Source: a virus
Lineage: Duplodnaviria > Heunggongvirae > Uroviricota > Caudoviricetes
DNA: 64,000 nucleotides
IMG/VR virus record: IMGVR_UViG_3300022871_000010
Strand: one strand, 5' to 3'
Below, piece after piece: positions 8,229-64,000 of the stretch (positions are counted from its first letter, which is position 1; each line of letters begins with the position of its first letter). Below the pieces are notes generated by a model, which did not search any database, was not told the DNA's origin, and saw only the letters and a list, made by a program, of their open reading frames with translations. Both the position numbers and the translations under genes were made by a program.

Positions 8229-8386
8229 AAGACGAGATACTCTTCTACGTAAAATAACTTGTAAAGTTCCCTCATCTTTTAAAAATTGTAAAATACTATT
8301 ATAAGTTTGTGGAGCATTTTTTATTACTGCAGCAATGTCTTCATCATTATGAACTGTCGCTCTTATTACTTCCTCTTTATTGTTAA

Positions 8387-13238: not shown

Positions 13239-13454
13239 TTTATTTCACCTATCATAATTGTTTATATTAATATAATTAATAATGATATATATAAATGTTT
13301 TGTTTTACCATTATCCCTTATCATATTCAAAGTCACCTGACACTGGTTACAGTGACACTCATAATATATTCTTAAAGTCTATATATATAAAATTGTTATA
13401 TATATACACTCTCTGAAGGCTTTTAGAAATGCACAATATTTATTAGAAAAAACA

Positions 13455-25541: not shown

Positions 25542-25606
25542 TTCGTATACCTCATATTATAGTTTAATCAAAAAAAAATAAAAAAAAATAATAATTAAGT
25601 GTTAAC

Positions 25607-26327: not shown

Positions 26328-26969
26328 ATGCTTAATAAAGTATTGAGCACTAAACGAAAAGGTATATACACCATGACAGAAAACGAATTTGATAAATTAT
26401 ACAAACAGGATGACTCCGCGGAGACATCAAACAACACAGCTAATTCTGAAGTAAAAGAAGAAATTGTAGTAAGTGGAGACGCTGGTTTAGAGTACGATTT
26501 TAACAAAGCTTCAAAAACTACTAAAGGTCCAGAACGAGAAAACTTGGATGGTAAAACTGTAACTATTACAGATATGAAAATAATTTTACCAAAACCTGAA
26601 AAACCTTGGGACTTATCTAGAGATAAAAAAACTAAATACAAAAGTTGTGTGTTTATATTATTTTATGATAATGAAGGACAGAGAGAATATTATTCTGGAG
26701 TAAAAGTTTTTGAAAGAGAAGTTAATGGAGTATTCTCATATTCAGACCCTAACATTCAAAATAGTGGAAAAACACAAATCACTGGTTTGAAAACACTTTA
26801 TGCTGCATACAAAAATAAAAAGCCTGAAGAAGTTAGCATGTTCGAATTTTTATCGTTCCTTAAAAGTCAACCAAAAGTTGAACTTAAATGGACACCTATA
26901 GAATGGAACAACTCTGAAACTGGTAAAGACGAAATTTCACATAAGAATTTTGTTGCTAAGTTTATTTAA
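26328..26969 (+). CDS. Hypothetical protein (213 aa). The start may be the internal ATG at 26373.
   Basis: ORF only. Confidence 0.5.
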   Translation: MLNKVLSTKRKGIYTMTENEFDKLYKQDDSAETSNNTANSEVKEEIVVSGDAGLEYDFNKASKTTKGPERENLDGKTVTITDMKIILPKPEKPWDLSRDKKTKYKSCVFILFYDNEGQREYYSGVKVFEREVNGVFSYSDPNIQNSGKTQITGLKTLYAAYKNKKPEEVSMFEFLSFLKSQPKVELKWTPIEWNNSETGKDEISHKNFVAKFI

Positions 26970-27149
26970 ATATTTTTTTTATTTTTTTAATAATTATTAT
27001 CAAGCATTATTACACAGGGCTATTTGATATATTCAATTGATTTTTTCGTTGTGTAATAATATTAATATTTACGTGCGGTTGGTTGGAGTTATTCAGCAGA
27101 ACTATGGTTTTTGTATATGAATAAAAAGACCCATACATCCGCATTACTA

Positions 27150-27222
27150 GGGCTCGTAGCATAACGGCTAATGCAGTCGCCTTGCAAGCGAAAGACTTTG
27201 GGTTCAAATCCCAACGGGTCCA
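27150..27222 (+). tRNA. tRNA-Ala (anticodon TGC).
   Basis: Cloverleaf read by hand: acceptor GGGCTCG/CGGGTCC with the G3:U70 Ala identity pair, D-arm GCAT/ATGC, anticodon loop CTTGCAA, T-arm TTGGG-TTCAAAT-CCCAA. No encoded CCA. Confidence 0.8.
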
Positions 27223-27509: not shown

Positions 27510-27598
27510 TGGGGCATAGCTCAGTATGGTAGAGCAGGTTAATGGGATAATTTAATTATTCAATCTATCAGTCGGGGGTTCGAATCCCTCTGCCCTTA
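27510..27598 (+). tRNA. tRNA-like gene with about 14-20 extra nucleotides in the anticodon arm (possible archaeal intron) and a mismatched 1:72 pair. The anticodon could not be assigned.
   Basis: Acceptor and D-arm (T)GGGGCA-TA-GCTC-AGTATGGTA-GAGC. T-arm GGGGG-TTCGAAT-CCCTC. 3' acceptor TGCCCTT-A. The middle region AGGTT...AATCT can pair around a 21-nt insert. Confidence 0.5.
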
Positions 27599-30947: not shown

Positions 30948-30986
30948 CAAACATTTATATAGTTAAAGAATATATAGATATATACA
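30948..30986 (+). promoter_or_regulatory. Archaeal BRE/TATA promoter element, 39 bp, identical to 34203..34241.
   Basis: aaacatttatatagttaaagaatatatagatatatacaa occurs upstream of both 31008 and 34255. Confidence 0.55.
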
Positions 30987-31007
30987 ATTAACATTTCGAG
31001 GCAAAAA

Positions 31008-34202: not shown

Positions 34203-34241
34203 CAAAACATTTATATAGTTAAAGAATATATAGATATATAC
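34203..34241 (+). promoter_or_regulatory. Second copy of the 39-bp BRE/TATA promoter element.
   Basis: Identical to 30948..30986. Confidence 0.55.
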
Positions 34242-34254
34242 AAGGGTGTCTTAA

Positions 34255-42200: not shown

Positions 42201-43021
42201 TAGTTAAAACAGAAGAATATTTCGAGAATGATTATGTTTATGACTTTTCAATAGATGATTACGAAAAGTTCTATGCCAACGATGTATTAGTACATAATAC
42301 TGATTCATGGTATTTTGAAGATGTGTACGACGACCCACAAAGATTCCTGGAATTAAAGGACAAATTAATTGAGGAAATAAAAACACACACACCATTCCCA
42401 TCGGCAACATTTGATGCAGGAGTAGATGATGAAATTAAAGCAATGTTCTTTTTTCAAGCAAGAAAAGGTAAAGCTGCTAAAGAAGAAGATGAAAGCGAAT
42501 TAGATGATGATGACCGAATGTATAAACCTTTAGGCCTAATGAAAAAGAATTACATTTATGTAACCCAGAAAGACAAATTAGTATTAAAGAATTTAGGGAT
42601 AAAGAAAAAAAGTATCAGTGCATTATCTAAAAAGATATTTTGGGAATACATGGTTCCAATAATAAAGAAAGACTTTGTAGTAAAGTTTTCTAAAGTAAAG
42701 ATAGATAACTTAATGATTGAATATTTATCTGAAAATATAGAGTTAGCCTATATGAGAAAGAAAGTTAAATCATATGGGGCGTATAAGAAATCAAACACAA
42801 TAATTCAAGCACAGATAGCTAAGAAGTATGGCCCAGGAATACATTTTTTAATACCAAACAAAAGACATATTGGTGTTGGAAAAGGAGTAACTTATTGTTC
42901 AGACAAAGAATTCAAAGAGACAGGAATGAGCATAGCAGATATAGATTTAGAATATTATCGTAAAGAATTAGCTTATTTTGCAGTAGATAACAGACAACAA
43001 AAGTTGTTTGATATGTTTTAG
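39221..43021 (+). CDS. polB: Family-B DNA polymerase with a 3'-5' exonuclease domain, interrupted by two inteins. The extein is about 694 aa, or about 740 aa if intein 2 takes the shorter Cys-start boundary.
   Basis: Exo I IYDIETAA, Exo II YNNIEYDNPIL, Exo III YTKRDIEIT. Motif A LDYNSLYPSI. Motif B KIIIN-[intein]-SYGKF. Motif C GYKIIYTD-[intein]-TDSWYFE. KxY motif KKNYIYV. Confidence 0.85.
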   Translation: MIREKEYVCPPNFEDVLIYDIETAAFGDSPNAQKNDLRVFGYYSFNTDTLGTLPYYDKEGIQKLIDEHKFLVGYNNIEYDNPILEREGISLEYKRMVDLMKILLNRAGGMKTNKGMVGQELLRYSLDAVTRFFDLVNDETAKGDLDYSILKKTKWTKEEKDDIIKYTKRDIEITKKLYLFMEKYFEGFKDFVPEKDIKGKYYLTDSMAKVVYKAICHALKWEPEYDKDFTPELAKDRIDGGYVSYPAGEKFVGNIYCLDYNSLYPSIMMMCNLYGRNKTTFKGWNGDNYFDVKGFYDSENQSETSVLLQNLYLLRMMYKRKLLLEDGHIIKMIDKKNGKSVYDYIGQKYHHVSKHAGGQICSSLELLTKAQADHFYKITLEGMDPREYTIKIIINCFDETGQVMTPEGIKYIKDCKVGDMVYSINPKNSLLEVKPIIDVTKREYTGSFHNYRSNGYNFRITPNHKLLLNNKHQKQGDSVFLKSVSLRDQRIIPSAKPNFPEQPEFIYLDDVYHENFMVAIRPKDNEQLFFTDNNLDINDFRYSTVLKAYIIKYSEIKKTLRTLENCDIKCYHEDTIIRDCNAMDYKMDRKTFMELIGWLIFRGNIHKVKTYTTINPRTLKVKKVAERQFMTIKGTHSWSETITVKAIFDLCKSLGLHPVKQGKIILCHNQILVNMMLPYKVDDTLMNLEGFLKYLDAETAHLIIKTMIKFSQENSSTDICVWDEGAKIAVCKLITLAGGTFVLTPKKNFTRIRTSFVPTLIGPKNKKSYQHSGPIYNIHVKDNHTILAGSYGKFNWIGQTSYGILDKKYYKLVYDKVAAGDCTRLARQWVKLARKRFKAEGYKIIYTDSVTKDMKVTLQNDEQITVEEYWNKYAANKELVAETKFRHEDKEYGDCIKPILTCNDLYKNEFQTPVQIIRHKKADRIYEFHTESGKVLKCTADHSIITLDLDTMQYKTITPEEAKEVGFLLIDVRTHGMAPDDMTLEEADFTMDAIVKTEEYFENDYVYDFSIDDYEKFYANDVLVHNTDSWYFEDVYDDPQRFLELKDKLIEEIKTHTPFPSATFDAGVDDEIKAMFFFQARKGKAAKEEDESELDDDDRMYKPLGLMKKNYIYVTQKDKLVLKNLGIKKKSISALSKKIFWEYMVPIIKKDFVVKFSKVKIDNLMIEYLSENIELAYMRKKVKSYGAYKKSNTIIQAQIAKKYGPGIHFLIPNKRHIGVGKGVTYCSDKEFKETGMSIADIDLEYYRKELAYFAVDNRQQKLFDMF
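40406..41587 (+). mobile_element. PolB intein 1 (about aa 396-789), carrying a LAGLIDADG-type endonuclease, at the motif-B (pol-b) site. The C-terminal junction is non-canonical.
   Basis: Starts CFDETGQVMTPEGIKYIKDCKVGDMVYSI. LAGLIDADG-like LIGWLIFRGN and LITLAGGTF. Block F-like IYNIHVKDNHTILAG. No His-Asn immediately before the SYGKF that restores motif B. Confidence 0.6.
41765..42298 (+). mobile_element. PolB mini-intein 2 at the motif-C (pol-c) site. The preferred boundary is a Ser-1 start (aa 849-1026), giving the spliced motif YTDTDS. The alternative is a Cys start at 41903 after EYGD.
   Basis: Block A SVTKDMKVTLQNDEQITVEEY. Block B VLKCTADHSIITLD. C-terminus ANDVLVHN|TDS. Confidence 0.65.
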
Positions 43022-47042: not shown

Positions 47043-47396
47043 ATGGGTAAGAAGATAAACGTCTTAATTGACGGGTTGGATATGAACAGTTTTGAATCAA
47101 TGGCCAGAACATTTGTGGAGCTAAGGGATATTAGTAAAGAAATGGCAACACAGATGGAAGCCATTGAGGACCGTATAAAATATATGCTTAAAGAAAAAAA
47201 ATGGGAAGACTATAAGACCCCATCAAACATTCATTTAAAGCGTTTTACAGTAAAGAAAGAAAGAATTAATAAAAACTTATTATCAATGTTACTTCCACAG
47301 GAAAAATTGCAAAAAGTATTAACGACTACACATGTAGAAACATTGAGTATACTATCTCCAAAGGATAGAGTGAGGCTAAAAAAATATGTCAATTAA
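47043..47396 (+). CDS. Hypothetical protein (117 aa).
   Basis: ORF preceded by the TATA-like aaacatttataaa. Confidence 0.5.
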   Translation: MGKKINVLIDGLDMNSFESMARTFVELRDISKEMATQMEAIEDRIKYMLKEKKWEDYKTPSNIHLKRFTVKKERINKNLLSMLLPQEKLQKVLTTTHVETLSILSPKDRVRLKKYVN

Positions 47397-49309: not shown

Positions 49310-49483
49310 ATGTCAATAAGAGTTATTGCGGGAGTATTAATGATTCTAATGACCATGCTCATGACGTGGCGTGAAGGTATGATTAAATTTATAGCAATAG
49401 GTATAGGCATTGTAATATGTCTATATATTATCAGAAAGATTGCGGACCTATATTGGTATGGCAAAGACAAGAACGAGTGGTAA
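49310..49483 (+). CDS. Small membrane protein (57 aa). Not in the ORF track.
   Basis: MSIRVIAGVLMILMTMLMTW...IAIGIGIVICLYII. Confidence 0.4.
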   Translation: MSIRVIAGVLMILMTMLMTWREGMIKFIAIGIGIVICLYIIRKIADLYWYGKDKNEW

Positions 49484-49494
49484 TATTTCTAAAT

Positions 49495-50320
49495 TAATTA
49501 AATTATAGCACTGACTTAATTGTCGCACTCTTTTATAAAGTAGTCAGGGCTATATATAAATGAACTGACTTAATTGTTTCACATCTATATTCTCTAAACT
49601 ATATGTTGTAAACTATATGTTGTAAACTATATGTTCTAACCTATATGTTGTAACCTATATGTTCTAAACTATATGTTCTAAACTATATGTTGTAACCTAT
49701 ATGTTGTAAACTATATGTTCTAAACTATATGTTCTAAACTATATGTTCTAAACTATACTTCATTCTTGTTATTTACTTGACTGACAAAAATGTCTCACTC
49801 CTTTTATAAAGAAACACAGTTCATATATAAAGGACTGACTTAATTGTCTCACATCTATATTCTCTAACCTATATGTTGTAACCTATATGTTGTAACCTAT
49901 ATGTTGTAACCTATATGTTGTAAACTATATGTTGTAACCTATATGTTGTAGACTATATGTTTCCAACAAGTTACTTTTATCGGGACTGACAAAAATGTCT
50001 CACTCCTTTATAAAAGAAGTTACTATATATATAAATGGACTGACTTTTTTGTCTCACATCTATATTCTCTAACCTATAGGTTGTAACCTATATGTTGTAA
50101 CCTATATGTTGTAACCTATATGTTGTAACCTATATGTTGTAACCTATATGTTGTAACCTATATGTTGTAGACTATATGTTTCCAACAAGTTACTTTTATC
50201 GGGACTGACAAAAATGTCTCACTCCTTTATAAAAGAAGTTACTATATATATAAATGGACTGACTTTTTTGTCTCACATCTATATTCTCTAACCTATAGGT
50301 TGCAGACTATACCTTTTATA
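49495..50320. repeat. Higher-order repeat locus. Four roughly 110-bp leaders, each with two TATA-like boxes and duplicated GACTGAC...GTCTCAC elements, are each followed by an array of 14-bp direct repeats (CTATATGTTGTAAC or CTATATGTTCTAAA).
   Basis: Arrays span about 49597-49757 (11 or more units), 49867-49958 (about 6.5), 50071-50178 (about 7.5) and 50291-50312 (truncated). The leaders at 49981-50070 and 50181-50290 are identical. There are no spacers, so this is not a CRISPR. Confidence 0.9.
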
Positions 50321-51975
50321 AAGGATACTATAAAATGTTGTATAAAATTGATAAAATATCAAAAAATGAGATTTTTGGATTTACAATTTTGAAAGGCTAA
50401 AAAATTTTTTAGCTTCGTGAAAAAACCAATTCGTTTCTCGGTAAAACTCATATGAAACTTTTTTCTCTATATACAAATACGCATAATATTTTATTTGCTT
50501 AAAGTAACATTATGTTTAATTGTTTAACTAATCTAACACGCAGACACCCCCAATTAGGGTAGTGTTTTTGGAAGAATCGGACCATCTAGAATACTTAGCA
50601 TCTTAAACATACTATCCCTTTATAAAGGAAATATATATTTCTGAAAAAAAATTATATATTTATTCTGAGAATTATATATTTCTTTTATATACTTTATAAA
50701 CAAATCTAAATTAATTAACAACAGGTATATACATTTCAGTAATTCATATACATCTATATGTTTTTTATTAATTCATATACATTTGGGGTTAACAGAACAT
50801 GCCAGATGATACAGGTATTCTCTGATGGTATCTTTTAGATACTAAGTATACAAAAGATACTATGGTTTTATTTTTATAATTATATATTTCTTTTATATCC
50901 CAAAAAGTATGCAGTGCATTACATACATTGTATACATTGTATGCATTGTATACATGTAACACTTAGGAACTTAAACGCGGGTAATAAATGATACAGACCG
51001 GCACAATATATAACAGATGTGTTGCGTGTAACACATGGGGTCTAAAAGATACTAGGGATATTTCTGGTAACACACTGGACTTCAATTTTGAATTTTGAAA
51101 TTTGAATATATAAAAGAATAAAAATTAAACAGGTAATAAAAATATAGGTCATGCCACATTGCGCACAGTTCAACCACCCGATGTGTTACCACCCAAATTT
51201 CAAATCAGGTAACACGGAACAGCATATTTGAAATTTTATATATGATATTTGGATAATTTCAATTTTTAAGAATTTAAAGCGTAATATTTGAAATTTTTAA
51301 ACTAGTTGAAAATCCCTATATTTCAAAATTCAAATATAGCTTTAAATTCAAATTTCAAAATTCAAATATAGCTTTAAATTAAATATTTCAAATATTGTTT
51401 ATATATAGGCGTAAATTTCAAATATTCAATTTTTAAACAGGATAATTTTAAATATTCAATTAGAACATATTTAAATTTTAAAATTAACGTGGTTTATTTG
51501 AATTTTAAGAACTTATTTGAATTAGTATATAGATATATTTGAAATTATTTTAAAGTTCTTTAAAACGCTTAATATTTGAAATTCTTTTATAAAGGACTTT
51601 TGGTTTTTAAAAAATTGAATTTTCTTTATATACTAATTGAATACAACCTGTTTATTAGTAGAATTTAAGGGGGTAATATTTAGGGGGTATATAGGTTTTA
51701 AAAAAAATACATTATTTCATTTAAAAGGAAATAGGGTACAGCCTCTCTACTATCCGAATTAAAGCATATTAACTTTTTTACTATTTATAAAGGTTTCTAT
51801 CTGTTTAAAAGGTTATTTTTTTACTTTATAAATAAAATTTTTAGTCTTTATAAAGGGTTTCGGTTTATATGTTTAATAGAGGTTTCAGGGTATTTACTAC
51901 TAAAAAATTACAAAGAAAGTTTATATACATTTTTTACTTTCTTACATCATAAGGTAAATAAAAACCTTAAAAAAA
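50321..51975. promoter_or_regulatory. 1.65-kb AT-rich noncoding region dense in ATTTGAAAT/ATTTCAAAT motifs and short direct repeats. Candidate replication origin or unwinding region.
   Basis: No ORF of 60 aa or more. More than 15 copies of the 9-mer in both orientations at 51060-51620. A roughly 31-bp tandem duplication at 51330-51390. CATTGTATAC x3 at 50920-50955. GTGTTAC/GTAACAC operator half-sites at about 51020-51216. Confidence 0.5.
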
Positions 51976-52206
51976 ATGGAGTTAAAAAAAATGGAAAACC
52001 AAGAAAATTTAAAAATAATTTATAAAACAATTACAGACAATTTTGAAGGCGATATAAAAAACTTTATTACTGAAAAAATTATTAAACCACAGGATTTAAG
52101 CGAGTGGATAAAAAATTTAAATAATAATAGTGACGGCGAAATGGCTCACGAAATTTTATATATTGTTGATAGTAAAACAGGCGAAATATTACCAATCATT
52201 TTTTAA
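51976..52206 (+). CDS. Hypothetical small acidic protein (76 aa). An alternative start is at 51991.
   Basis: First ORF after the noncoding region. Followed by a T-run. Confidence 0.45.
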   Translation: MELKKMENQENLKIIYKTITDNFEGDIKNFITEKIIKPQDLSEWIKNLNNNSDGEMAHEILYIVDSKTGEILPIIF

Positions 52207-52221
52207 ATTTTAAATTTTAAT

Positions 52222-52368
52222 TTTTTTTTATTGTTTAGGTGTGTTACTTTAATAGATACTACAAAGTAACACGCAAGAGCCATTTTACAAAACCGAAAGG
52301 TTTATATATAAGCTATGCTTTTAGTAATTATAAGGAATTAAACCTTAAAAAAATTAATAGAGGAAAAA
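52222..52368 (+). promoter_or_regulatory. Promoter cassette copy 1: oligo-T terminator, 10-bp perfect inverted repeat GTGTTACTTT-N12-AAAGTAACAC (52241-52272), BRE/TATA AAAGGTTTATATATA (about 52296-52312), conserved leader TTATAAGGAATTAAACCTTAA, then SD GAGG.
   Basis: Almost identical cassettes at 53606, 55798 and 58705. Confidence 0.75.
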
Positions 52369-52806
52369 ATGAAAGAACTAAAATCTGGAACTTATTTAAT
52401 AAAAAATAATAAAGCAGAATTAACAACATTAGAACCTAAAGGGTGCGTTAGATTTGTAACAAAAGATGAAACTAAAATTAATCTTAATAAATTTGATAAT
52501 TGTATAATGTATATATCTAATACTCCATTGAATCAAGATATTTCTATTTATCAACTCGAAGACAAAGGGGGTATAAAAATTAATATAAATACAATAAAAG
52601 AAATAAAAAAAGATTTAAAAATAAAAAATAGATGGGTATATGAAACATATTTTTTTAATGGCGAAATTTACGAAACTAAAAGGTATAACAATTGGTTTCA
52701 GATTTTCAGAAATGCAAAAACTAAAATTAATATTCCTTTTGCACATTTTGAAACCCAAAAAGCAGTAATAAACAATTTATTACAATATGCAAAAGAGGGG
52801 TTTTAA
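52369..52806 (+). CDS. Hypothetical protein (145 aa).
   Basis: ORF driven by cassette 1. Confidence 0.55.
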   Translation: MKELKSGTYLIKNNKAELTTLEPKGCVRFVTKDETKINLNKFDNCIMYISNTPLNQDISIYQLEDKGGIKININTIKEIKKDLKIKNRWVYETYFFNGEIYETKRYNNWFQIFRNAKTKINIPFAHFETQKAVINNLLQYAKEGF

Positions 52807-52807
52807 A

Positions 52808-53041
52808 ATGATATCAAAACAATATATAAAAGATTTAGAATTTAGCACTATTGAAGATATTTATACTTATATTGTAGATAGTGAAATAAACGGGGCGATT
52901 AATCAATTTAAGGAACTGATAAATAAATTATCGGGGCAACAATTTTTAAACTTTTTAAAGTTTTTAAATAACCAAGATTATGGGAATGCAGAAGAAACAG
53001 AACTTTTTAAAATTAAAGTTTTAAATGCAAGGGGGGTATAA
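52808..53041 (+). CDS. Hypothetical protein. The start is revised to the ATG at 52808 after the SD agagggg.
   Basis: ORF only. Confidence 0.45.
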   Translation: MISKQYIKDLEFSTIEDIYTYIVDSEINGAINQFKELINKLSGQQFLNFLKFLNNQDYGNAEETELFKIKVLNARGV

Positions 53042-53043
53042 AA

Positions 53044-53280
53044 ATGGTTATACCACAAAGTAAAACTAAAAAAGTTGTAGTTATGTTTAATAAAAAATTT
53101 GAAAGAATAACCATAAAAAACAATGAATCAATTTTTAAATTATTACGACAAGCCGAACAATTAAGAAAACAAGCAAACAAATATCAAAATAAAAAATTTT
53201 GGGTTTTGCACGAAGTTAGAAAACAACAAAAACAAATTGCAATAGAACAATTAAAAAAATTAGAGAAAAAAAATGGATAA
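53044..53280 (+). CDS. Hypothetical basic protein (78 aa).
   Basis: SD aggggggta. Confidence 0.45.
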   Translation: MVIPQSKTKKVVVMFNKKFERITIKNNESIFKLLRQAEQLRKQANKYQNKKFWVLHEVRKQQKQIAIEQLKKLEKKNG

Positions 53281-53408
53281 TAAAACAGGATTAAAAAAAG
53301 GGGATTATATAGAAAATTATAAAGAAACCAAAGAAAACGAAGTATTTATATTTATGTATATTAACGGAGTTGAATATAAAGGATTATTAAACGCAGAGGA
53401 ATATTAAA
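53274..53408 (+). CDS. Mini-protein (44 aa). Not in the ORF track.
   Basis: ATG overlaps the upstream stop. Confidence 0.3.
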
Positions 53409-53409
53409 A

Positions 53410-53601
53410 ATGAATTTTAAAATAGATATTAACGAAATTAAAACACAGGGCGAAGCTAGAAGTTTAGGAATGGAGTTTCAAGAGTGGAGTAGCAAACAAA
53501 GTTTAAGTTATGGAGAATTAATAAATTATCAAAATGATTTAATGACAATAGCAGAAAAATTTGATTTAATCGAAGAATTTAAAGAGAATGGAATAATTTA
53601 A
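53410..53601 (+). CDS. Hypothetical acidic protein (63 aa).
   Basis: ORF followed by a T-run. Confidence 0.45.
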   Translation: MNFKIDINEIKTQGEARSLGMEFQEWSSKQSLSYGELINYQNDLMTIAEKFDLIEEFKENGII

Positions 53602-53605
53602 TTAT

Positions 53606-53752
53606 TTTTTTTTATTCTTTACGTGTTACTTTAATAGATACTACAAAGTAACACATAAGAACTATTTTACAAAAACGAAAGGTTTATATATAAGCTATAC
53701 TTTTAGTAATTATAAGGAATTAAATCTTAAATAAATAAATACAGGTGGAAAA
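53606..53752 (+). promoter_or_regulatory. Promoter cassette copy 2. Inverted repeat at 53623-53654; TATA at about 53678-53692.
   Basis: Same architecture as copy 1. Confidence 0.75.
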
Positions 53753-54652
53753 ATGGAATTTAAAACACAAATATATAAGGAAGCACAGCAGACACAAACA
53801 AAAGTTTATGATTTGCAGAAAGTAGAAAGCAAAAGACACAGCGAAAAGAAAAACGAAATTTATTTTAAATATTCTAATTTAGAAAGAGAATTAAACAGCA
53901 AAAAATACGCAGAAGAAAGAGAAGCAGAAGCACAGCACGACAAAGAAAAAGAAGCTTTAAAAAATCAAAGAGCAGACGCAGACACACAACAAAAAACATT
54001 TAAAAAAATTATTGCTTATATGGATATCCTTAAAGCAGAAGCAGACTTTAAAAAAGATGATTTTGGGGCGTATATTTATGATTACCCAAAGGACAAACAA
54101 GGCGAAATTTTAAGAGTTATGAAAGATAATTGTTCTTGTTATCCTGAAAAAGAAAAAGTTTTCTTAAAACCTATTGATACATTACACGAAGATAAAAATT
54201 TAATTCTAAAAGTTTATATTGGCGACAATACCAAACCAAAAAACAAAAAAAGTTTATTTGTTCTTGGAAAAAGTGTTTTAAATTTAAATCATTATGAAAG
54301 CAAAGTTTTAACATTGCCCCACGATTACGGCATAAATTCCAATGAAGAAAACGCAAGTATTAGAAGCATATTAAAGGACTTTCCGACTGAAAAAGAAGCA
54401 AAGGCGTATTATGAGAAGAATAAAACAAAAGTGCTTAAAAGCTTCTTAATAGAGCATAAAAACGCAGTTGCAGAACTGGAAGAAGTGCGAAAAAATACAA
54501 CTTCTTACGATTGGAAACTTTTATATTTAGAATCTAAAAGAGATTATTACATAAATTCTTATAGTGGATACGAAGAAAACGAAGACTATAACAAAGTTTT
54601 AAAAGAACTTGAAGAATTAAAAAAAAGAGGTTTAATAAATGATAGAAAATAA
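53753..54652 (+). CDS. Hypothetical K/E-rich protein (299 aa).
   Basis: SD aggtgg. Confidence 0.55.
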   Translation: MEFKTQIYKEAQQTQTKVYDLQKVESKRHSEKKNEIYFKYSNLERELNSKKYAEEREAEAQHDKEKEALKNQRADADTQQKTFKKIIAYMDILKAEADFKKDDFGAYIYDYPKDKQGEILRVMKDNCSCYPEKEKVFLKPIDTLHEDKNLILKVYIGDNTKPKNKKSLFVLGKSVLNLNHYESKVLTLPHDYGINSNEENASIRSILKDFPTEKEAKAYYEKNKTKVLKSFLIEHKNAVAELEEVRKNTTSYDWKLLYLESKRDYYINSYSGYEENEDYNKVLKELEELKKRGLINDRK

Positions 54653-54995
54653 AGAGCCAATAACAAGAATACAATTAGGAAATATTTTAAGAAAATTAAG
54701 TAAACAATATAACTATAAATATTATAGTAGTTTTGAATGTTGTAATAATTGTTTTACGAGTGGATTACCGGACGGCGAAGACTATGTTTATTTAAAATAT
54801 TGCAATAAAGGAATGAATCGCGAACCATTAGAAAGTTTTAAATATTCTAAAAGGTGGTGGTTAGTTTATGGTTTAAAATTTGAAACAAATGAGTTTTTTA
54901 AAATTTTAAAAACAGAAATTCAAAAAATTTCAAGTTCAATAATGGAAATACCAAAAGATAAAACAAAATGTATTATTATAATAAGGGAGATTTAA
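54639..54995 (+). CDS. Hypothetical Cys-containing protein (118 aa).
   Basis: ECCNNCF...YLKYCNKG. Confidence 0.45.
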   Translation: MIENKEPITRIQLGNILRKLSKQYNYKYYSSFECCNNCFTSGLPDGEDYVYLKYCNKGMNREPLESFKYSKRWWLVYGLKFETNEFFKILKTEIQKISSSIMEIPKDKTKCIIIIREI

Positions 54996-54998
54996 AAA

Positions 54999-55217
54999 AT
55001 GGGTGCTAATACATTCAGAAAAATAATAGAACAGACCGATTTGATTTATGATGATGTAGATTTGAATATTTTTTTAACAAACCACTATCTGAATATTTTA
55101 AGTTATGTAGAAAACAAGAAAAACTTTTTAAATTATATAGAAGATAACGAAAATATAGAAGAATTATGCACAGATAAAGACGGATTTGACAACCCGTTTA
55201 TAATTGGGGAAAAATAA
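54999..55217 (+). CDS. Hypothetical acidic protein (72 aa).
   Basis: ORF only. Confidence 0.45.
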   Translation: MGANTFRKIIEQTDLIYDDVDLNIFLTNHYLNILSYVENKKNFLNYIEDNENIEELCTDKDGFDNPFIIGEK

Positions 55218-55218
55218 A

Positions 55219-55404
55219 ATGGAATTAAACGAAAAACAACAGGAAAAATTACAAAAATTATTAATGGAATTTATGACAGAAAAAAATATTAAAATTCCAG
55301 ATGAAACTGATTTTGTTTTAGATACTATTTATTATGAAATGGTTAGTAGTATAGAGGAATATTTAAAAAGAATAAACAATATAGAGGTGCAACAAAATGA
55401 ATAA
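55219..55404 (+). CDS. Hypothetical protein. The start is revised to the ATG at 55219 after the SD gggga.
   Basis: ORF only. Confidence 0.4.
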   Translation: MELNEKQQEKLQKLLMEFMTEKNIKIPDETDFVLDTIYYEMVSSIEEYLKRINNIEVQQNE

Positions 55405-55792
55405 GAAAGATTTAATAACTAAAAATTTAAATAAGGTGTTTTCATATAAAACAGAATCAGAAGCAATAGGAGAAATTAAAGAAGAAAATTTAAAAGGATT
55501 TATGGACGAAAGCAACGCTTTTATGATTATTCCAAAATATGAAACACTTAAAACATATATTGTAAATACTTTTAATGTGCAAGAAACAAAAATTCCCGAA
55601 TTGAGTTATAACCACGACCACCCGACAAAATCAAGTTTTTCAAGAGAATATTTAAACGTGTTGTTTAGTATAGCAAAAAATACTAAAGGAGAAAAATTTA
55701 AAATTTCAGTTGGAAACACTTATCCTTTGAAAATTGAAACCAAAGAGTTTATATTTATTTTAGCCCCAGTTGTTGATAACGAACTAAATTAA
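55397..55792 (+). CDS. Hypothetical protein (131 aa).
   Basis: ORF followed by a T-run. Confidence 0.5.
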   Translation: MNKKDLITKNLNKVFSYKTESEAIGEIKEENLKGFMDESNAFMIIPKYETLKTYIVNTFNVQETKIPELSYNHDHPTKSSFSREYLNVLFSIAKNTKGEKFKISVGNTYPLKIETKEFIFILAPVVDNELN

Positions 55793-55797
55793 TTTTT

Positions 55798-55941
55798 TTT
55801 TATTCTTTATGTGTTACTTTAATAGATACTACAAAGTAACACACAAGAACTATTTTACAAAAACGAAAGGTTTATATATAAGCTATGCTTTACTATATTT
55901 ATAAGGAATTAAACCTTAACAAAAATTTAATGAGGAAAAAA
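55798..55941 (+). promoter_or_regulatory. Promoter cassette copy 3. Inverted repeat at 55811-55842; TATA at about 55866-55880.
   Basis: Same architecture as copy 1. Confidence 0.75.
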
Positions 55942-56784
55942 ATGACTACTAAAAAAATACAACCAAAACAACAAGAACAGATTAATAAAAAACTTAACGA
56001 ATTTATAGAAAAAGAATATAAAACATATTTTAAAGAAGTTTCTTCTGATTATGTAGAGCTATTTAAAAATGTTGATTTTAAAGAGTTTTCTGAAAGAGTT
56101 TCTGAATTGATTTTAGAGGGTTTTGAGTTTGAGCAACCTTTTATATCACGAAACGATTATTATAGTTGTAGTGGATTTTATGACGATTTAACAAGGTTTG
56201 ATGAAGAATTAAGTGATAAAGATACAACTGATTTAATAGATTATAGTTTAGAAAAAATAGAACTAAAAAGTTATGAATATAGCGAGGATTTTTTATCTGA
56301 ACAAATTAAGGAATGTTTTTCAACACTTTTTAATGGCGTAGATATTTTTAAAATAATTAAAATAAGCAGAGATGACGCTTATATTGTTATTAGTGATGAA
56401 GATGTAAAGATAAACATTCCCGAAGAAATTAATAATTATGATAAGTTTGAAGACTTTTTAGACGAGTTAGAAGACAGATTAGAGGATATAAATAAAGACA
56501 ATTTAATAATGGGATATTTTGCAAATTTCCACAGAGAAGTATTTAAATGGTTTTGTGATACAACAGAATTAGATAAAAATATTAAAGATTTAGATTTACA
56601 AATTCAAATAAATATAAAAGAAGAATTAAAAAATAGAAAACTTAATTTAATGATAACAAAACACAACGAACACGAAATTTTAAAAATTTTAAAACAGGAA
56701 TTTAAAAATGCTTTAAAATATAAAGAAGATTATATTAAAATAATTGATGAAGAAATTAAATCAATTAAAAACGAGGGAAAATAA
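55942..56784 (+). CDS. Hypothetical acidic protein. The start is revised to the ATG at 55942; the track's start at 55885 lies inside the promoter cassette.
   Basis: GAGGAAAAAAATG context identical to the other cassette-driven genes. Confidence 0.55.
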   Translation: MTTKKIQPKQQEQINKKLNEFIEKEYKTYFKEVSSDYVELFKNVDFKEFSERVSELILEGFEFEQPFISRNDYYSCSGFYDDLTRFDEELSDKDTTDLIDYSLEKIELKSYEYSEDFLSEQIKECFSTLFNGVDIFKIIKISRDDAYIVISDEDVKINIPEEINNYDKFEDFLDELEDRLEDINKDNLIMGYFANFHREVFKWFCDTTELDKNIKDLDLQIQINIKEELKNRKLNLMITKHNEHEILKILKQEFKNALKYKEDYIKIIDEEIKSIKNEGK

Positions 56785-56785
56785 A

Positions 56786-56944
56786 ATGATAGTAAAAATA
56801 GTAGAAGATACAAGAAATAATTTATATGAAGTATTTGTTTCAGAAATAAATCATAATTATAACGCTTATAATAATTATTTAGGAATATTTGATATAACAG
56901 AATTAAAGCGAGAAATTAAAAATAATAATTGGGTGGTGGATTAA
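56786..56944 (+). CDS. Small protein. The start is revised to 56786 after the SD gaggga.
   Basis: ORF only. Confidence 0.4.
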   Translation: MIVKIVEDTRNNLYEVFVSEINHNYNAYNNYLGIFDITELKREIKNNNWVVD

Positions 56945-56945
56945 A

Positions 56946-57155
56946 ATGGAAAACGAAGAATTAAGAGATTTTGTATTAAATTATAGAGATGAATTTAGTA
57001 TAACACTAAAAGCAAAAAATAAAAATGAAGCTATAAGTTTAGCGAATAAAAATAAAGGTCATATAGAATGTATTGGGGATTTATGGGAAGAATTTTTTAC
57101 TATTGAAGAAGAAGGAATCGATTTTGAAATTGAAAAAGGTGTCAATAATGCATAG
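56946..57155 (+). CDS. Hypothetical protein (69 aa).
   Basis: ORF only. Confidence 0.4.
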   Translation: MENEELRDFVLNYRDEFSITLKAKNKNEAISLANKNKGHIECIGDLWEEFFTIEEEGIDFEIEKGVNNA

Positions 57156-57285
57156 AATTATAATAGAAGTTGAAGACGATATTACTTTACAGGCAGGTAT
57201 CGAAAAAGAAAAATTAAAAGAATTAATATCATCTTTTAATTATAGTGTTAAAAATATAATTTATTCAACAGAAGAAGTAGTTTGA
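57148..57285 (+). CDS. Small protein. The start is revised to 57148 after the SD aaggtg.
   Basis: ORF only. Confidence 0.35.
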   Translation: MHRIIIEVEDDITLQAGIEKEKLKELISSFNYSVKNIIYSTEEVV

Positions 57286-57308
57286 AACAATAAACGAGGA
57301 AAAATAAA

Positions 57309-57497
57309 ATGATAAAAATGATTAAAGGAACAAATGTTAAAGGATTAATCGCAGAACTAGAAAAATTACCAAAACTATTACCTGTTTTGATAGCTAGTGA
57401 TGAAGAACAAAATCAAGTTTTCAAAGGGTTTTTTTTAGAAACGTATAATGACGGGGTAATAATCGCAGGGTTAAGTGGTTGCGAATTAGAGGACTAA
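57309..57497 (+). CDS. Hypothetical protein (62 aa).
   Basis: SD gagg. Confidence 0.4.
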   Translation: MIKMIKGTNVKGLIAELEKLPKLLPVLIASDEEQNQVFKGFFLETYNDGVIIAGLSGCELED

Positions 57498-57501
57498 TAA
57501 A

Positions 57502-57627
57502 ATGGTTCAATTAGAAAATGTTAGTGATGAATTTATGGAGTGGTTAGATACTTGTCCTGTTAAATGGTTTTTAGTAGGTCAAGATAGCGAAAGTGTAGAT
57601 TACAGCTTTACCAAACAGGTGGAATAA
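57502..57627 (+). CDS. Mini-protein (41 aa). Not in the ORF track.
   Basis: Its stop abuts the next ATG (TAAATG). Confidence 0.3.
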   Translation: MVQLENVSDEFMEWLDTCPVKWFLVGQDSESVDYSFTKQVE

Positions 57628-57879
57628 ATGACAGAAAAAATACAGGAAACTTTATTTGAAAATTTTTTAATGTATTGTGCAGAAGATAACGAACCATTAA
57701 AAATAGAAATACAAACGTGGTTAGCAGATTATTTTGATTTATCAAATAGAACCATTAAAATAGAAGAATATGAAAAAAAATGGATTACAGAAAATTTAAC
57801 TCCAAAAACTCAAATATTACTTTTTGGTTATACATTAGAGCAATGGGAAAAAGAATATAATAATAGGGTAGATAAATAA
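57628..57879 (+). CDS. Hypothetical protein (83 aa).
   Basis: ORF only. Confidence 0.45.
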   Translation: MTEKIQETLFENFLMYCAEDNEPLKIEIQTWLADYFDLSNRTIKIEEYEKKWITENLTPKTQILLFGYTLEQWEKEYNNRVDK

Positions 57880-57880
57880 A

Positions 57881-58018
57881 ATGGAATCTGGAACAGAACA
57901 TAAAACAGCAAGATGTGAAGATAAAAATTGTCAAAGATACGGGGAAAAACTACAATACTCAAAAAAATATAAGAGTTTTGTTTGCCCCGATAGTTTAGTT
58001 GCAAATGGAGAAATGTAA
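57881..58018 (+). CDS. Cys-cluster mini-protein (45 aa). Not in the ORF track.
   Basis: ARCEDKNCQRY...FVCPDS. Confidence 0.35.
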   Translation: MESGTEHKTARCEDKNCQRYGEKLQYSKKYKSFVCPDSLVANGEM

Positions 58019-58020
58019 AA

Positions 58021-58305
58021 ATGGCTAAAGGAACATTAAAACATAATAAATTTTTTGGAACAATGGAACAAAAAAGATTTAAGGATTTGGAAGATATTAA
58101 AGCATTTTTGCAAAAAGAATTTATAGGTGCGACAATTAGTGCAGAATTTAAATCTTACGAAGACACCGATTATTTTTGTAGTGATTATGAAATAATTTGC
58201 ACAATACAGAAAGGTTTTGATTATTTAATAGATTTAGATTTATATTTTTTATATGATAGAAGAAATATGCTATTAATTACAGAATTTGGATTTGAGGAAG
58301 AATAA
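58021..58305 (+). CDS. Hypothetical protein (94 aa).
   Basis: ORF only. Confidence 0.45.
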   Translation: MAKGTLKHNKFFGTMEQKRFKDLEDIKAFLQKEFIGATISAEFKSYEDTDYFCSDYEIICTIQKGFDYLIDLDLYFLYDRRNMLLITEFGFEEE

Positions 58306-58306
58306 A

Positions 58307-58705
58307 ATGGGAATGAACCAAGATGAATTAAACGCTTTATCAGACGAAGAAATAGAAAGGCAGGGATTTAATCGTTGCGATAAATGTAATGCCGTAGAAC
58401 GCACCAATACGCTTATATGGATAACATCAGAAGACTTTGAACCAAAAGAAAACGAGATTATTCCCGAAGACTTATATTCAAAGTATGATTGCTTATGTGA
58501 AAGTTGTTATTTGGAAGAAATTACAATAAAAACTAAGGGGTTTAATTCAAATAAATTAGCAAATGCTTTTTATGATGAAGATTATACTTATATAGAATTT
58601 ATCACAAAAGAAAGACCTACTAATCAAGTAGAAGCAGAAAAAATCATTAATAATTATATAGATAATTATTATGAAAATAAAAAAGAAGACCAAAAAAGCG
58701 AATAA
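58307..58705 (+). CDS. Hypothetical Cys-containing acidic protein. The start is revised to 58307 after the SD gaggaag.
   Basis: CDKCNAVER...CLCESC. Confidence 0.45.
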   Translation: MGMNQDELNALSDEEIERQGFNRCDKCNAVERTNTLIWITSEDFEPKENEIIPEDLYSKYDCLCESCYLEEITIKTKGFNSNKLANAFYDEDYTYIEFITKERPTNQVEAEKIINNYIDNYYENKKEDQKSE

Positions 58706-58786
58706 AAACGATACATTTATATATAAGCTATACTTTACTATATTTATAAGGAATTTAAACCTTAATAAAAATTTAATGAGGAAAAA
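58705..58786 (+). promoter_or_regulatory. Promoter cassette copy 4: TATA plus conserved leader only, without the inverted-repeat operator.
   Basis: atacatttatatataagctata...ttataaggaatttaaaccttaa...gaggaaaaaATG. Confidence 0.65.
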
Positions 58787-59248
58787 ATGGAATTAACCAA
58801 AGCAAAAAAATTAGCAGAAGAACTACTAGAAAAACATAATCCCGATTATACATTACGTTTTGATAATGCAAAAATAAGACTGGGGTGTTGTAATGTTTCT
58901 AAAAAATATATTTCTTTATCAAGACCTTTTATTTTGTTGAATAATGAAGAAGCCATAAAAGACACTATATTACACGAAATTGCACATTCTTTAACACCAC
59001 AACATAATCATAATAATATTTGGAGAGCAAAAGCCATCAAAATAGGGTGTAATGGAAATAGAATTTGTAATGATGAAAATGTTATTATCCCAAAAGGAAA
59101 ATATGTTTTTCAATGCCCAAAATGTAAAAAAAAAGTTTTTGCACATAGAAAACAACGTATAGAAAAGTCTTGTGGAAAATGTTGCAAAGCATATAATAAT
59201 AATAAATTTTCAAAAGATTACGTATTAGAATTAATAGAGGTGCAATAA
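58787..59248 (+). CDS. SprT-like zinc metallopeptidase with a C-terminal zinc ribbon (153 aa).
   Basis: HExxH: ILHEIAHSLTPQH. Ribbon FQCPKCKK...CGKCC. Confidence 0.5.
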   Translation: MELTKAKKLAEELLEKHNPDYTLRFDNAKIRLGCCNVSKKYISLSRPFILLNNEEAIKDTILHEIAHSLTPQHNHNNIWRAKAIKIGCNGNRICNDENVIIPKGKYVFQCPKCKKKVFAHRKQRIEKSCGKCCKAYNNNKFSKDYVLELIEVQ

Positions 59249-59440
59249 ATGATGAAAGATACAAAAATGGTTTATGGTTATGGATTATTTTATAATGGCG
59301 AACAAATAGACCAAACAGAAATAGACGAATTAAACGAAAATTTGGCGTGGGATATTATGATTGAAGACCACGAAAACAAAGATAAAAATTTAATGACAAT
59401 ACAATTAAATTACGAAAAAGAAGACCTAGAGGAAAAATAA
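59249..59440 (+). CDS. Hypothetical acidic protein (63 aa).
   Basis: ORF only. Confidence 0.4.
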   Translation: MMKDTKMVYGYGLFYNGEQIDQTEIDELNENLAWDIMIEDHENKDKNLMTIQLNYEKEDLEEK

Positions 59441-63009: not shown

Positions 63010-63365
63010 ATATAGAAAAGTGTGATAGAATAGCAAACACCATAATGGATAACGGATTTAATGATTTAAGTGTTGAGGATTTAAATTTAGTTATTAATCA
63101 TTGTAAAGAAATATTAAATAATCGAGAAGCAGGATATACAATACCATCAATGATTATAACAAAAGACGACCTTAAAACAAGATTTGAGGGTAAAGTTGAT
63201 GAAAAAGAAACTAGCACAGACATTGATTTAATACCATCAGAAGATATGAAATGGATGGCTTATAGAATGTCAGACAAAATGATGGAAACCTACTGGGACG
63301 CTTTAGAAGAAGCATACGAAGACCTTAAAGAACATAAAATACACGAGGAACAAAAAAATGGTTAA
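63006..63365 (+). CDS. Hypothetical acidic protein. The start is revised to 63006 after the SD aggtg.
   Basis: ORF only. Confidence 0.45.
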   Translation: MNIEKCDRIANTIMDNGFNDLSVEDLNLVINHCKEILNNREAGYTIPSMIITKDDLKTRFEGKVDEKETSTDIDLIPSEDMKWMAYRMSDKMMETYWDALEEAYEDLKEHKIHEEQKNG

Positions 63366-63786
63366 AAAAGAATTATTGGAAAAACTTAAAACGCCAAAAT
63401 CTAAAAACTTTGAACTTACAATTTTACCAAAAAAATTTACAAAGTTTAAGCCACTTTTAAGATTTGGGAAAGATATATTTAATGATGAAAAATTAATAGA
63501 ACTTAAATTTTCAAACAAAATATATTTAGGAAAGTGTTTTATAGACACAACTAAACGTGGTATGGATTGGAATCCGATGCACCAATGTTATGTATTTATA
63601 TCAGAACTGGATAGTGCATTTTCATATGATTTATTACGTCAAAAAAAAATTAAATTAGTAGCCACAGACATTGAACTTAAAAAAGTTGTTGATAAAAGAA
63701 TTAATATGCTGATTAAAAAAGGACAATATCATTTTAAAGAAATTGTAGAAACACACAATAAACTTAAAGAGATGCAAAATGGTTAA
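63358..63786 (+). CDS. Hypothetical protein with N-terminus MVKKELLEKLKT (142 aa).
   Basis: ORF only. Confidence 0.5.
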   Translation: MVKKELLEKLKTPKSKNFELTILPKKFTKFKPLLRFGKDIFNDEKLIELKFSNKIYLGKCFIDTTKRGMDWNPMHQCYVFISELDSAFSYDLLRQKKIKLVATDIELKKVVDKRINMLIKKGQYHFKEIVETHNKLKEMQNG

Positions 63787-64000
63787 AAAAGAATTATTGG
63801 AAAAACTTAAAACATCAAAAGTATCAAAAGACAGAAAATGGATATATACGCTTATAACTTGGGCGTTAGAAAATCAAACAAAAGATGTTGCAACATTTCA
63901 ACGAAGAATACAATCATCAGTTCATTATGCTAAAGGAAAATATCAAGAATATTGGGATAACCCACGAACACAAGCACAACATAAAAAAGCACACGCAAAA
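63780..64000 (+). CDS. Hypothetical protein. Partial: it runs off the window. Its N-terminus is identical to the previous gene's.
   Basis: atggttaaaaaagaattattggaaaaacttaaaac is repeated at 63358 and 63780. Confidence 0.45.

Follow-up and report, generated by a model that had tools for sequence, protein, structure and literature searches.

Repeated cassettes between blocks of tiny genes were analysed in a 64,000-nucleotide stretch (hereafter the window) of the virus record IMGVR_UViG_3300022871_000010 (Caudoviricetes), and our results make it probable that they are composite transcription-unit boundaries, built of two separable modules, in a virus with archaeal-type transcription machinery. 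Module A would end the upstream unit. It comprises a T9 oligo-T terminator past the stop codon and, about 10 nt further on, a palindromic GTGTTAC...GTAACAC element that would be bound by a sequence-specific protein. The bound protein would stall the polymerase while the active site is over the T-run, keeping transcription from running on into the next promoter, whose activity it may also regulate. Module B would start the next unit, with a transcription factor B recognition element (BRE; G at -6, A at -3), the TATA box TTTATATA and a transcription start site (TSS) predicted 22-24 nt past the TATA box. The leader of about 40 nt would open with a hairpin (S1), whose loop would reach over an A-rich linker to pair with the bases immediately 5' of the Shine-Dalgarno sequence (SD), giving a second helix (S2). 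The resulting H-type pseudoknot probably shields the mRNA 5' end and/or tunes ribosome access. Standing alone, as in the copies at 58709 (copy 4) and 51913, module B would serve as an internal booster promoter.

Layout and promoter of the cassettes

The cassettes sit in a 12-kb run of tiny, tightly packed, SD-led genes on the + strand, which starts just downstream of a repeat-rich 2.5-kb noncoding field and may be expressed early. Among its 37 predicted proteins, 36 gave no significant Pfam match, the exception being an SprT-like protein. Three near-identical modules of about 150 bp start at 52221, 53605 and 55793 and carry, in order, a T9 run, a perfect 32-bp inverted repeat, CGAAAGG+TTTATATA, the hairpin leader, an SD and the ATG. 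A preliminary description of the region had reported four repeated modules, and exact matches, a repeat search and the geometry all bear this out. The third start given there (55798) was about 5 nt late, since the T9 begins at 55793. The 32-bp GTGTTACTTTAATAGATACTACAAAGTAACAC has three exact occurrences (52241, 53623 and 55811; 0 expected), TTTATATATAAGCTAT exactly four (52301, 53683, 55871 and 58716), and the leader hairpin sequence TTATAAGGAATTAAACCTTAA three matches with at most one mismatch, against 0.03 expected. The repeat search grouped 151-nt copies at 52213, 53595 and 55783 into one family, and a second, 86-nt family has a further member at 58704. The inverted repeat lies exactly 60 bp from the TATA box in all three full copies, and the TATA box 68-71 bp from the ATG.

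The fourth copy, at 58709, is truncated to promoter and leader. Its homology begins about 10 nt before the TATA box, right after the upstream stop codon; the inverted repeat is missing, as had been noticed, and so is the T-run. A fifth promoter and hairpin, with the same TATA-to-hairpin geometry and again no inverted repeat, is present at 51913 and precedes gene 51976. The idea that copy 4 is a special constitutive variant had to be given up, as this short form is common, accounting for 13 of 39 cassettes in the viral clade described below.

The motif AAA-NN-TTTATATA serves as the promoter motif across the whole window. AAANNTTTATATA is found nine times against 1.3 expected, nearly always in intergenic regions and pointing at the downstream gene, ahead of operons on both strands; other window operons are headed by AAAACATTTATATA. 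In the cassettes, TTTATATA, which fits the TATA-box pattern TTTAWATA, is exact in all five window copies and invariant in 17 of 19 cassettes of the clade, mostly 68-77 nt from the ATG. The combination of G at -6 and A at -3, reported as the strongest TFB-binding signature of the BRE in early promoters of archaeal viruses (PMC11065993), is present in the BREs CGAAAGG, CGATACA, CGAAACA and TAGAAACA, with the 51913 copy (TATA box at 51920) and some copies in the relative L077 deviating. Sigma-70-like sites are not enriched in the window (83 against 98 expected from shuffled sequence), and a sigma-70 reading fails in copy 4 and in the relatives. Taken together, these features predict a strong archaeal-type BRE/TATA promoter, as the preliminary description had proposed.

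The individual elements are arranged as follows, all but the inverted repeats being assigned to the + strand. In cassette 1, the T9 (52221-52229) lies 14 nt past the stop codon of gene 51976-52206; the inverted repeat GTGTTACTTT-N12-AAAGTAACAC (52241-52272) begins 11 nt after it, and CGAAAGG (G-6, A-3)+TTTATATA at 52294-52308 has a predicted TSS at about 52330-52333. In cassette 2, the T9 (53605-53613) is 3 nt past the stop codon of gene 53410-53601, the identical 32-mer (53623-53654) begins 9 nt after it, and CGAAAGG+TTTATATA occupies 53676-53690. In cassette 3, the T9 (55793-55801) immediately follows the stop codon of gene 55397-55792, and the same 32-mer (55811-55842), again after 9 nt, precedes the same BRE/TATA block at 55864-55878. 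In the short form of cassette 4, CGATACA+TTTATATA (58709-58723) lies 3 nt past the stop codon of gene 58307-58705. The fifth member, also of the short form, spans 51913-51978, with the BRE/TATA block AAGAAAG+TTTATATA at 51913-51927 (TATA 51920-51927) and its ATG at 51976.

Downstream of cassette 3, an open reading frame (ORF) called at 55885..56784 had been suspected to start at 55942, and this correction held. ATG 55885 is not the start codon because it follows the TATA box but precedes the predicted TSS; GAGG is found 6 nt before ATG 55942, and an independent gene caller starts the protein at the 280-aa position.

Other promoter-associated repeats were noted. A second repeated promoter module, AAACATTTATATAGTTAAAGAATATATAGATATATACAA, is identical at 30949-30990 and 34205-34246, upstream of genes 31008 and 34255, and its leader belongs to a different class without an S1 hairpin. 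The divergent promoters at 13288 (- strand) and 14058 (+ strand) have AAAACATTTATATATATCA in common. Past the TATA box but before the predicted TSS (+2 to +20 from the TATA end), cassettes of the relatives L077, L078, L079 and L081 contain TTAGTATATACTAA, a palindrome that is perfect over 14 bp, and L077 and L078 also contain GTATATACTAGAG just upstream of the BRE. A palindrome between TATA and TSS, or beside the BRE, occupies the classical position of an archaeal repressor operator. The window cassettes have lost TTAGTATATACTAA and carry TAAGCTATGCTTTTAGTAATTA.

Related cassettes and a covarying leader

Relatives were found through the first gene of block 2 (299 aa), whose homologues are graded from 76% to 30% identity. 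The preliminary description had suggested looking for the cassette in other viruses, and homologous cassettes were indeed present in L077, L078, L079, L081 and L082 (50-76% protein identity), the 76%-identity relative coming from Ace Lake, Antarctica. Their order is a T-run, one or more GTGTTAC/GTAACAC elements, GAAA-NN-TTTATATA, the box TAGTTAGTATATACTAAT, a hairpin, an A-rich linker, an SD and the ATG. A metagenome scan with the box TAGTTAGTATATACTAAT yielded 16 more loci, bringing the comparison to 40 cassettes, among whose leaders 29 are distinct. In L083-L086, where the 299-aa protein has more distant homologues (30-33% identity), such cassettes were absent, and the window region 52000-59300 gave no DNA-level match in a phage collection. 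Exact matches to the cassette pattern in IMG/VR (L001 and L035) were rejected as chance matches in unrelated GC-rich contigs. Some clade members are very low in G+C (19.4% in L081, 20% in L097).

The same virus, at 99.5-100% identity, is present in several public assemblies (L074-L076 among them), and these add no comparative depth because they are the same virus. Two short contigs, L075 and L076, end exactly inside cassettes, an indication that the repeats break assemblies. The 2.8-kb contig L072 (CAYXXQ010000435.1), binned in an 'uncultured Rhodobacter sp.' metagenome-assembled genome, is 99.96% identical to window positions 53983-56769 and is therefore a misbinned fragment of the same virus, not of Rhodobacter.

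Among copies 1-3, variable sites number 0 of 32 in the palindrome and 0 of 23 in the BRE/TATA block, against 5 of 28 in the spacer between them. Judged from these sequences and those of the relatives, the cassette is a real, selected regulatory unit whose parts are conserved rather than recently copied. The copies are mosaic. Copy 3 is nearest to copy 2 in its upstream part (92%) and to copy 4 in its downstream part (94%, against 75% to copy 2). L081 and L082 have the gene, promoter and leader in common, but upstream of AAAAACGAAACA their similarity breaks off, and the homology of copy 4 ends at this same boundary. Conserved proteins are re-ordered around the cassettes in the relatives. We propose that the repeated cassettes may serve as recombination substrates that shuffle blocks of small ORFan genes.

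Across the clade, S1 starts 21-27 nt past the TATA end, at the predicted TSS. Its stem differs among cassettes: TAAGG/CCTTA, GAGTT/AACTC, GTGTT/AACAC, CGAAT/ATTCG, TAAGTT/AACTTA and ATGAG/CTCAT occur, as do TGTG/CACA, AAAGGTT/AACCTTT, AGTGTTT/AAACACT, GTTGTT/AACAAC and GCTTA/TAAGC. In most types the S1 loop is in addition complementary to 4-8 nt just 5' of the SD, beyond the A-rich linker, with the S2 pairs ATTAAA/TTTAAT, TGTGA/TCACA, GTTGAA/TTCAAC, GCGA/TCGC, AATTATTT/AAATAATT, TAGTT/AACTA, TTTGA/TCAAA and TTATAT/ATATAA. Both helices were examined by permuting the pairing partners between cassettes. Comparing mere stem lengths with those of shuffled sequence has no discriminating power in DNA this rich in A and T. 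When the segments were cut by MAFFT landmark columns alone, the value for S1 was 132 against 85 expected (4 of 200,000 permutations were as high) and that for S2 was 117 against 87 (116 of 200,000). When S2 was examined in a structure-guided manner, with S1 chosen by algorithm, none of 100,000 permutations on nine distinct types and none of 200,000 on 25 types reached the observed value. G.U pairs occur on the sense strand only, and the structure therefore belongs to the + strand RNA. On this comparative evidence the leader would form, in most types, a pair of covarying helices in H-type pseudoknot topology; the conserved leader hairpin noticed earlier is real and selected, and constitutes one of the two helices.

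In the window, the leader of cassette 1 (52331-52371) has S1 TAAGG 52331-52335/CCTTA 52343-52347 and S2 ATTAA 52337-52341/TTAAT 52354-52358, followed by the SD GAGG (52360-52363) and ATG 52369. The leader of cassette 3 (55902-55944) has S1 TAAGG 55902-55906/CCTTA 55914-55918 and S2 ATTAAA 55908-55913/TTTAAT 55926-55931, with GAGG at 55932-55935 and the true ATG at 55942. In that of cassette 4 (58747-58789), S1 is TAAGG 58747-58751/CCTTA 58760-58764, with one extra T in the hairpin loop, and S2 is TTAAA 58755-58759/TTTAA 58772-58776; GAGG lies at 58778-58781 and the ATG at 58787. In these three copies loop L1 is 1 nt and the A-rich loop L3 is 6-7 nt long, which is feasible for a pseudoknot. The uniform leader end described at first thus applies to copies 1, 3 and 4, whereas copy 2 (leader 53713-53755) has the SD GGTGG (53744-53748; ATG 53753) and a C to T change that turns a G-C pair of the hairpin into G.U, so that S1 is weakened to TAAGG/TCTTA (53713-53717/53725-53729) with one G.U pair; there is no S2 partner. 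In the fifth member, TAAGGT/ACCTTA (51950-51969) forms the hairpin 23 nt past the TATA end, with neither SD nor S2.

Several observations weigh against a pseudoknot in every leader. No hairpin is present in 4 of 29 distinct leaders, and S1 occurs without S2 in window copy 2, the 51913 copy, the L091 type and L102. In L077, S2 takes the whole S1 loop or overlaps S1, and the two helices there may therefore be alternatives rather than a pseudoknot. Folded as single sequences, the window leaders have energies that do not stand out (z from -1.8 to +1.3), and RNAalifold predicted no pairs on the MAFFT alignment. The latter result is explained by the stems being out of register in the alignment columns, and column-wise pair counting was hence not used. 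Rfam gave no match at the gathering score and chance-level matches at permissive thresholds (E up to 5).

Inverted repeat and alternative explanations

Archaeal RNA polymerase terminates at oligo-T tracts without a hairpin. Of six sense-strand runs of nine or more T residues in the window, five are intergenic and right after a stop codon, and the T9 runs of copies 1-3, 0-14 nt past stop codons, agree with the oligo-T terminator that had been suggested for them. Long cassettes of the relatives carry T7-10 runs. Hairpin-plus-T terminators number three in the window against 2.6 expected from shuffled sequence, and none is at a cassette; a bacterial intrinsic terminator is excluded there because the palindrome comes after the T-run, which reads as an A-run on the opposite strand. 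Two other T-rich tracts, T9-A-T9 at 25570-25588 (sense on the - strand, directly past the stop of gene 25607-26254) and T8-A-T7 at 26973-26988 (directly past the stop of gene 26328-26969), are not followed by a GTGTTAC palindrome.

The half-site of the inverted repeat had been said to recur in the upstream noncoding field. For the 10-mer this is no more than chance, whereas the 7-mer core GTAACAC is enriched, with 13 occurrences in the window against 5.4 expected. Six of these are in the three palindromes, and five cores form a cluster at 50956-51215 in the noncoding field, which contains the inverted pair GTGTTAC-N19-GTAACAC (51183-51215) and is not preceded by a T-run. In every relative the core is non-coding and strongly enriched (6 against 0.16 expected in L081, 8 against 2.2 in L077). 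It is found as inverted pairs with spacers of 11-13 or 17-21 nt, with extra direct copies, or as a single copy. Taking into account that the arrangement varies while the core is kept, the core would be recognized sequence-specifically, most simply by a protein.

The noncoding field itself (49480-51975) contains three to four arrays of the 14-bp tandem repeat AACCTATATGTTGT, about 25 units in total, each array preceded by motifs of the type GGACTGAC(TT/AAAAA)TGTCTCAC. It also has many CTTTATAAAGG palindromes and TTTCAAAT/ATTTGAA repeats besides the GTAACAC cluster. The field could be a replication origin or control region; an analogous field with the same kinds of motif is present in L077 at 7371-8448.

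How the palindrome acts is where the readings part. The preliminary description took it for the operator of a repressor or activator regulon, and a classical operator or upstream activating site of one regulator of early genes, with no role in termination, stays a serious rival. It would explain that the palindrome is perfect and identical in three copies, that the core is conserved throughout the clade and clustered in a noncoding control field without a T-run, and that both half-sites are symmetrically changed in some relatives (ATGTTAC...GTAACAT); it is also known that early promoters of archaeal viruses can share flanking regulatory sequences and have repressors (PMC11065993). However, in the 26 long cassettes the repeat lies 25-63 nt from the TATA box and never overlaps BRE, TATA or TSS, whereas in 18 of 22 cases it takes 8-11 nt to get from the T-run end to the first half-site, the median being 10. 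Because the gap of about 10 nt to the T-run is fixed and the distance to TATA is variable, the palindrome is phased to the terminator and not to the promoter, which favours a role as a roadblock or insulator, possibly combined with regulation. In addition, the repeat occurs only in cassettes that bear a T-run, one third of the cassettes keep the same promoter and leader without it, and its arrangement varies among spacers of both length classes, direct repeats and single copies. The operator claim as it stood was therefore not retained, and we regard a pure operator as rather unlikely. We think it still less likely that the repeat acts as a nucleic-acid structure rather than a duplex binding site, either as an RNA hairpin in read-through transcripts (a 3' end stabiliser, processing site or back-up terminator) or as a DNA hairpin or cruciform for a recombinase that moves gene blocks, like integron attC sites or the promoter-early stem-loops (PeSLs) of T4-type phages. 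The stem GTGTTAC/GTAACAC is conserved and does not covary, the direct-repeat and single-copy forms (L078, L079, L082, L093 and L102) cannot fold as a hairpin, and with the T-run ahead of the hairpin, neither strand carries an intrinsic terminator of the bacterial type; the window yielded no recombinase or integrase, and the mosaic breakpoints spare the repeat, falling close to the TATA core and at the 5' edge of the promoter module. These points are set against a strong predicted hairpin (-14.4 kcal/mol, z = -4.5), arms that beyond the 7-mer core are complementary with differing sequence (TTT/AAA, TATA/TATA, TAT/ATA and TTTT/AAAA), a spacer that varies in length as a loop would, and the coincidence of cassette boundaries with gene-block shuffling.

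Two further readings concern the whole element. Were the virus a phage of an AT-rich bacterium, the cassette would be a true PeSL with an upstream operator and the sigma-70 promoter TTTACA-N17-TATAAG, which scores 10/12 in window copies 1-3. SD-led, tightly packed genes equally fit bacteria, and the nearest protein matches from cultured viruses are bacterial phages. The putative -35 element, however, is limited to those three copies and missing in copy 4, the 51913 copy and all relatives (2-4 of 6 matches), where TTTATATA is invariant, and G would be the last base of the -10 hexamer. The window has no more sigma-70-like sites or intrinsic terminators than chance would give, and the T-runs have no preceding hairpins. 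PHROGs is blank for nearly all large proteins, and the clamp loader encoded in the window is nearer to archaeal replication factor C (RFC) than to T4 gp44 or DnaX: it matched archaeal and eukaryal RFC small subunits in the PDB at 1e-37 to 1e-35, T4 gp44 at 2e-26 and Escherichia coli gamma at 1e-7, and in NCBIfam archaeal RFC at 2e-51 and DnaX at 6e-29. We accordingly hold a bacterial phage to be improbable. Recent segmental duplication, the internal parts having no individual function, would account for the 86-94% identity of the window copies over about 150 bp, spacers included. This is already contradicted by the comparative data, since substitutions avoid the repeat and the BRE/TATA block, the architecture persists at 50% protein identity with different sequences, and both stems are kept by compensatory change; it can hardly be entertained.

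The boundary model with terminator and roadblock, which we prefer, has points against it as well. The 13 of 39 cassettes without module A function without it, and the repeat is thus not needed for promoter function. In the noncoding field the motif occurs without a T-run, which means that the repeat does not serve terminators alone. Start sites, termination and binding of the palindrome are predictions from sequence. Among about 76 small proteins, no DNA-binding domain was detected, whether helix-turn-helix (HTH), ribbon-helix-helix or winged HTH, nor was any Aca8-like winged HTH or other virus-encoded regulator; this is an absence of detection and not proof of absence. Two structure predictions, for a 117-aa and an 84-aa protein, are uninformative as to a binding factor. 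The conserved 84-aa protein was modelled as a four-helix structure with no significant fold match. The 117-aa protein (47043-47393) was considered as a cyclin-fold regulator, TFB cores being cyclin folds, and rejected: the match to Cyclin_C_2 was below threshold (E = 8e-4), no homologues were retrieved, and the AF2 model had a predicted local distance difference test score of 50. This gene has its own promoter, and the protein is conserved in L077 at 36% identity.

Viral genome, known systems and significance

The window, with a G+C content of about 29%, is a segment of a large double-stranded DNA virus-like genome. It encodes an intein-bearing family-B DNA polymerase, the RFC-like clamp loader, several superfamily 2 helicases and two tRNAs. 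Most of its large proteins have no Pfam or PHROGs assignment, PHROGs recognising almost none, and the polymerase and a 732-aa protein have no sequence matches in the PDB. An archaeon is probably the host, to judge from the archaeal-type signals together with the RFC-like clamp loader. Speaking against this, the recognisable proteins (helicases and clamp loader) are 23-34% identical to assorted bacterial-phage proteins; the virus is uncultivated, and those same signals and that clamp loader are all from which we infer the host domain.

Other features of the window may be recorded here. The polymerase gene (39221-43021) contains intein and Hint modules in at least two insertions, and a helicase-like 766-aa protein (8387-10687, - strand) is also intein-bearing. 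The tRNA-Ala(UGC) at 27150-27222 is normal, with G3:U70 and CCA not encoded. A tRNA-like gene at 27510-27598, scored by Rfam at 39.7 bits, is enlarged by some 17 inserted nucleotides in the anticodon/variable region, and ARAGORN with intron search gave neither an anticodon nor an intron for it. A 45-nt direct repeat (96% identical; 63355-63399 and 63776-63820) covers the starts of two consecutive genes, which therefore have paralogous N-termini.

The basic idea of such an element is not new, because repeated promoter cassettes preceding small early or accessory genes are known from T4-type phages, rudiviruses and haloviruses. PeSLs of T4-type phages consist of a sigma-70 promoter and a G/C-rich stem-loop terminator (PMC2839356, PMC4122927). 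Like them, the present cassettes are small repeated terminator/promoter units in hyperplastic regions that flank ORFan blocks and differ slightly among related viruses, and recombination between copies, which reshuffles genes in the PeSL case, has its likeness here in the mosaic make-up of the copies, in their long and short forms and in a gene order that is shuffled. In contrast to PeSLs, the cassettes have a BRE/TATA promoter, an oligo-T terminator, a palindrome of conserved sequence after the T-run and a structured leader, and no sequence homology exists between the two. The palindrome is upstream of the promoter, as a PeSL stem-loop would be, but the oligo-T precedes it and its sequence is conserved. 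As a sigma-70 promoter is not supported and the palindrome would at most be a putative terminator hairpin, we do not count the cassette in the PeSL family.

Early and anti-defence regulatory sequences of archaeal viruses (SIRV2 and others) have virus-specific flanks, including some inverted repeats thought to be bound by repressors (PMC11065993). All five window promoters have the two properties by which those were recognized, a strong BRE/TATA promoter and flanking sequence shared within the same genome. Those systems are mostly for single genes of crenarchaeal viruses, with palindromes overlapping the BRE and a known winged HTH regulator, Aca8, whereas here multi-gene blocks are preceded by a palindrome 25-63 nt upstream that is tied to a T-run, and by a covarying leader. 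In halovirus HF2, intergenic repeats of 58 and 29 bp carry promoters and are conserved in sequence and position within the genus (PMC8707807). These too are repeated intergenic promoter sequences of an archaeal tailed virus; they are shorter, unrelated in sequence and not described as composites of terminator, palindrome and structured leader. The cassette is thus functionally akin to PeSLs, to the archaeal-virus sequences and to the HF2 repeats, and has no sequence in common with any of them.

For module A, a parallel in geometry is offered by RNA polymerase I (Pol I), which pauses 15 bp short of the site of a bound roadblock protein, within a T-rich tract (Reb1/Nsi1/TTF-I; PMC12366685). The likeness lies in a T-rich tract at a fixed short distance, the T9 being at about -18 to -10 from the first half-site. 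It is an analogy of geometry only, as the polymerase and factors differ and Pol I also requires an upstream RNA hairpin. For the leader, the nearest known counterparts are preQ1-I translational riboswitches, SD-adjacent leaders with an H-type pseudoknot (PMC9410914). Both are short pseudoknots in the 5' untranslated region with a 5-bp stem and a loop that pairs across an A-rich tail beside or over the SD. Unlike the riboswitches, the present leader has no Rfam match, occupies the very 5' terminus of the mRNA as predicted and recurs in front of many genes that are not related to one another. Because the loop nucleotides vary, covarying with their partners, they are unlikely to form a ligand pocket. 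The leader of T4 gene 32 is likewise a pseudoknot.

Three things look new: a leader of pseudoknot type with covarying helices, a palindrome phased to the terminator, and the clade of viruses as such. We raise, tentatively and with some doubt, the possibility that the leader is a new class of cis-acting RNA, and/or that the T-run with GTGTTAC...GTAACAC is a protein-roadblock terminator or insulator. In the first case, a clade of archaeal viruses would place a 5'-terminal, SD-abutting pseudoknot as a portable module on many unrelated genes, where it would either protect the mRNAs from 5'-to-3' decay or gate translation; to our knowledge, cis-regulatory RNA structures in archaeal viruses are almost unexplored. 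In the second, module A would be an archaeal-virus counterpart of the T-rich/Reb1-TTF-I terminators of eukaryotic Pol I. The fixed phase between T-run and palindrome suggests factor-assisted termination or insulation in an archaeal-type system, and such a mechanism is otherwise known from eukaryotic Pol I.

The clade comprises large, extremely AT-rich viruses (19-33% GC), with relatives in Ace Lake and other metagenomes, that appear to use a fully modular unit consisting of a terminator, a putatively bound palindrome, a strong promoter and a structured leader. The cassette consensus could help to locate the clade's accessory genes, possibly anti-defence ones, in metagenomes, and the cassettes may offer compact and portable expression parts for AT-rich archaea.

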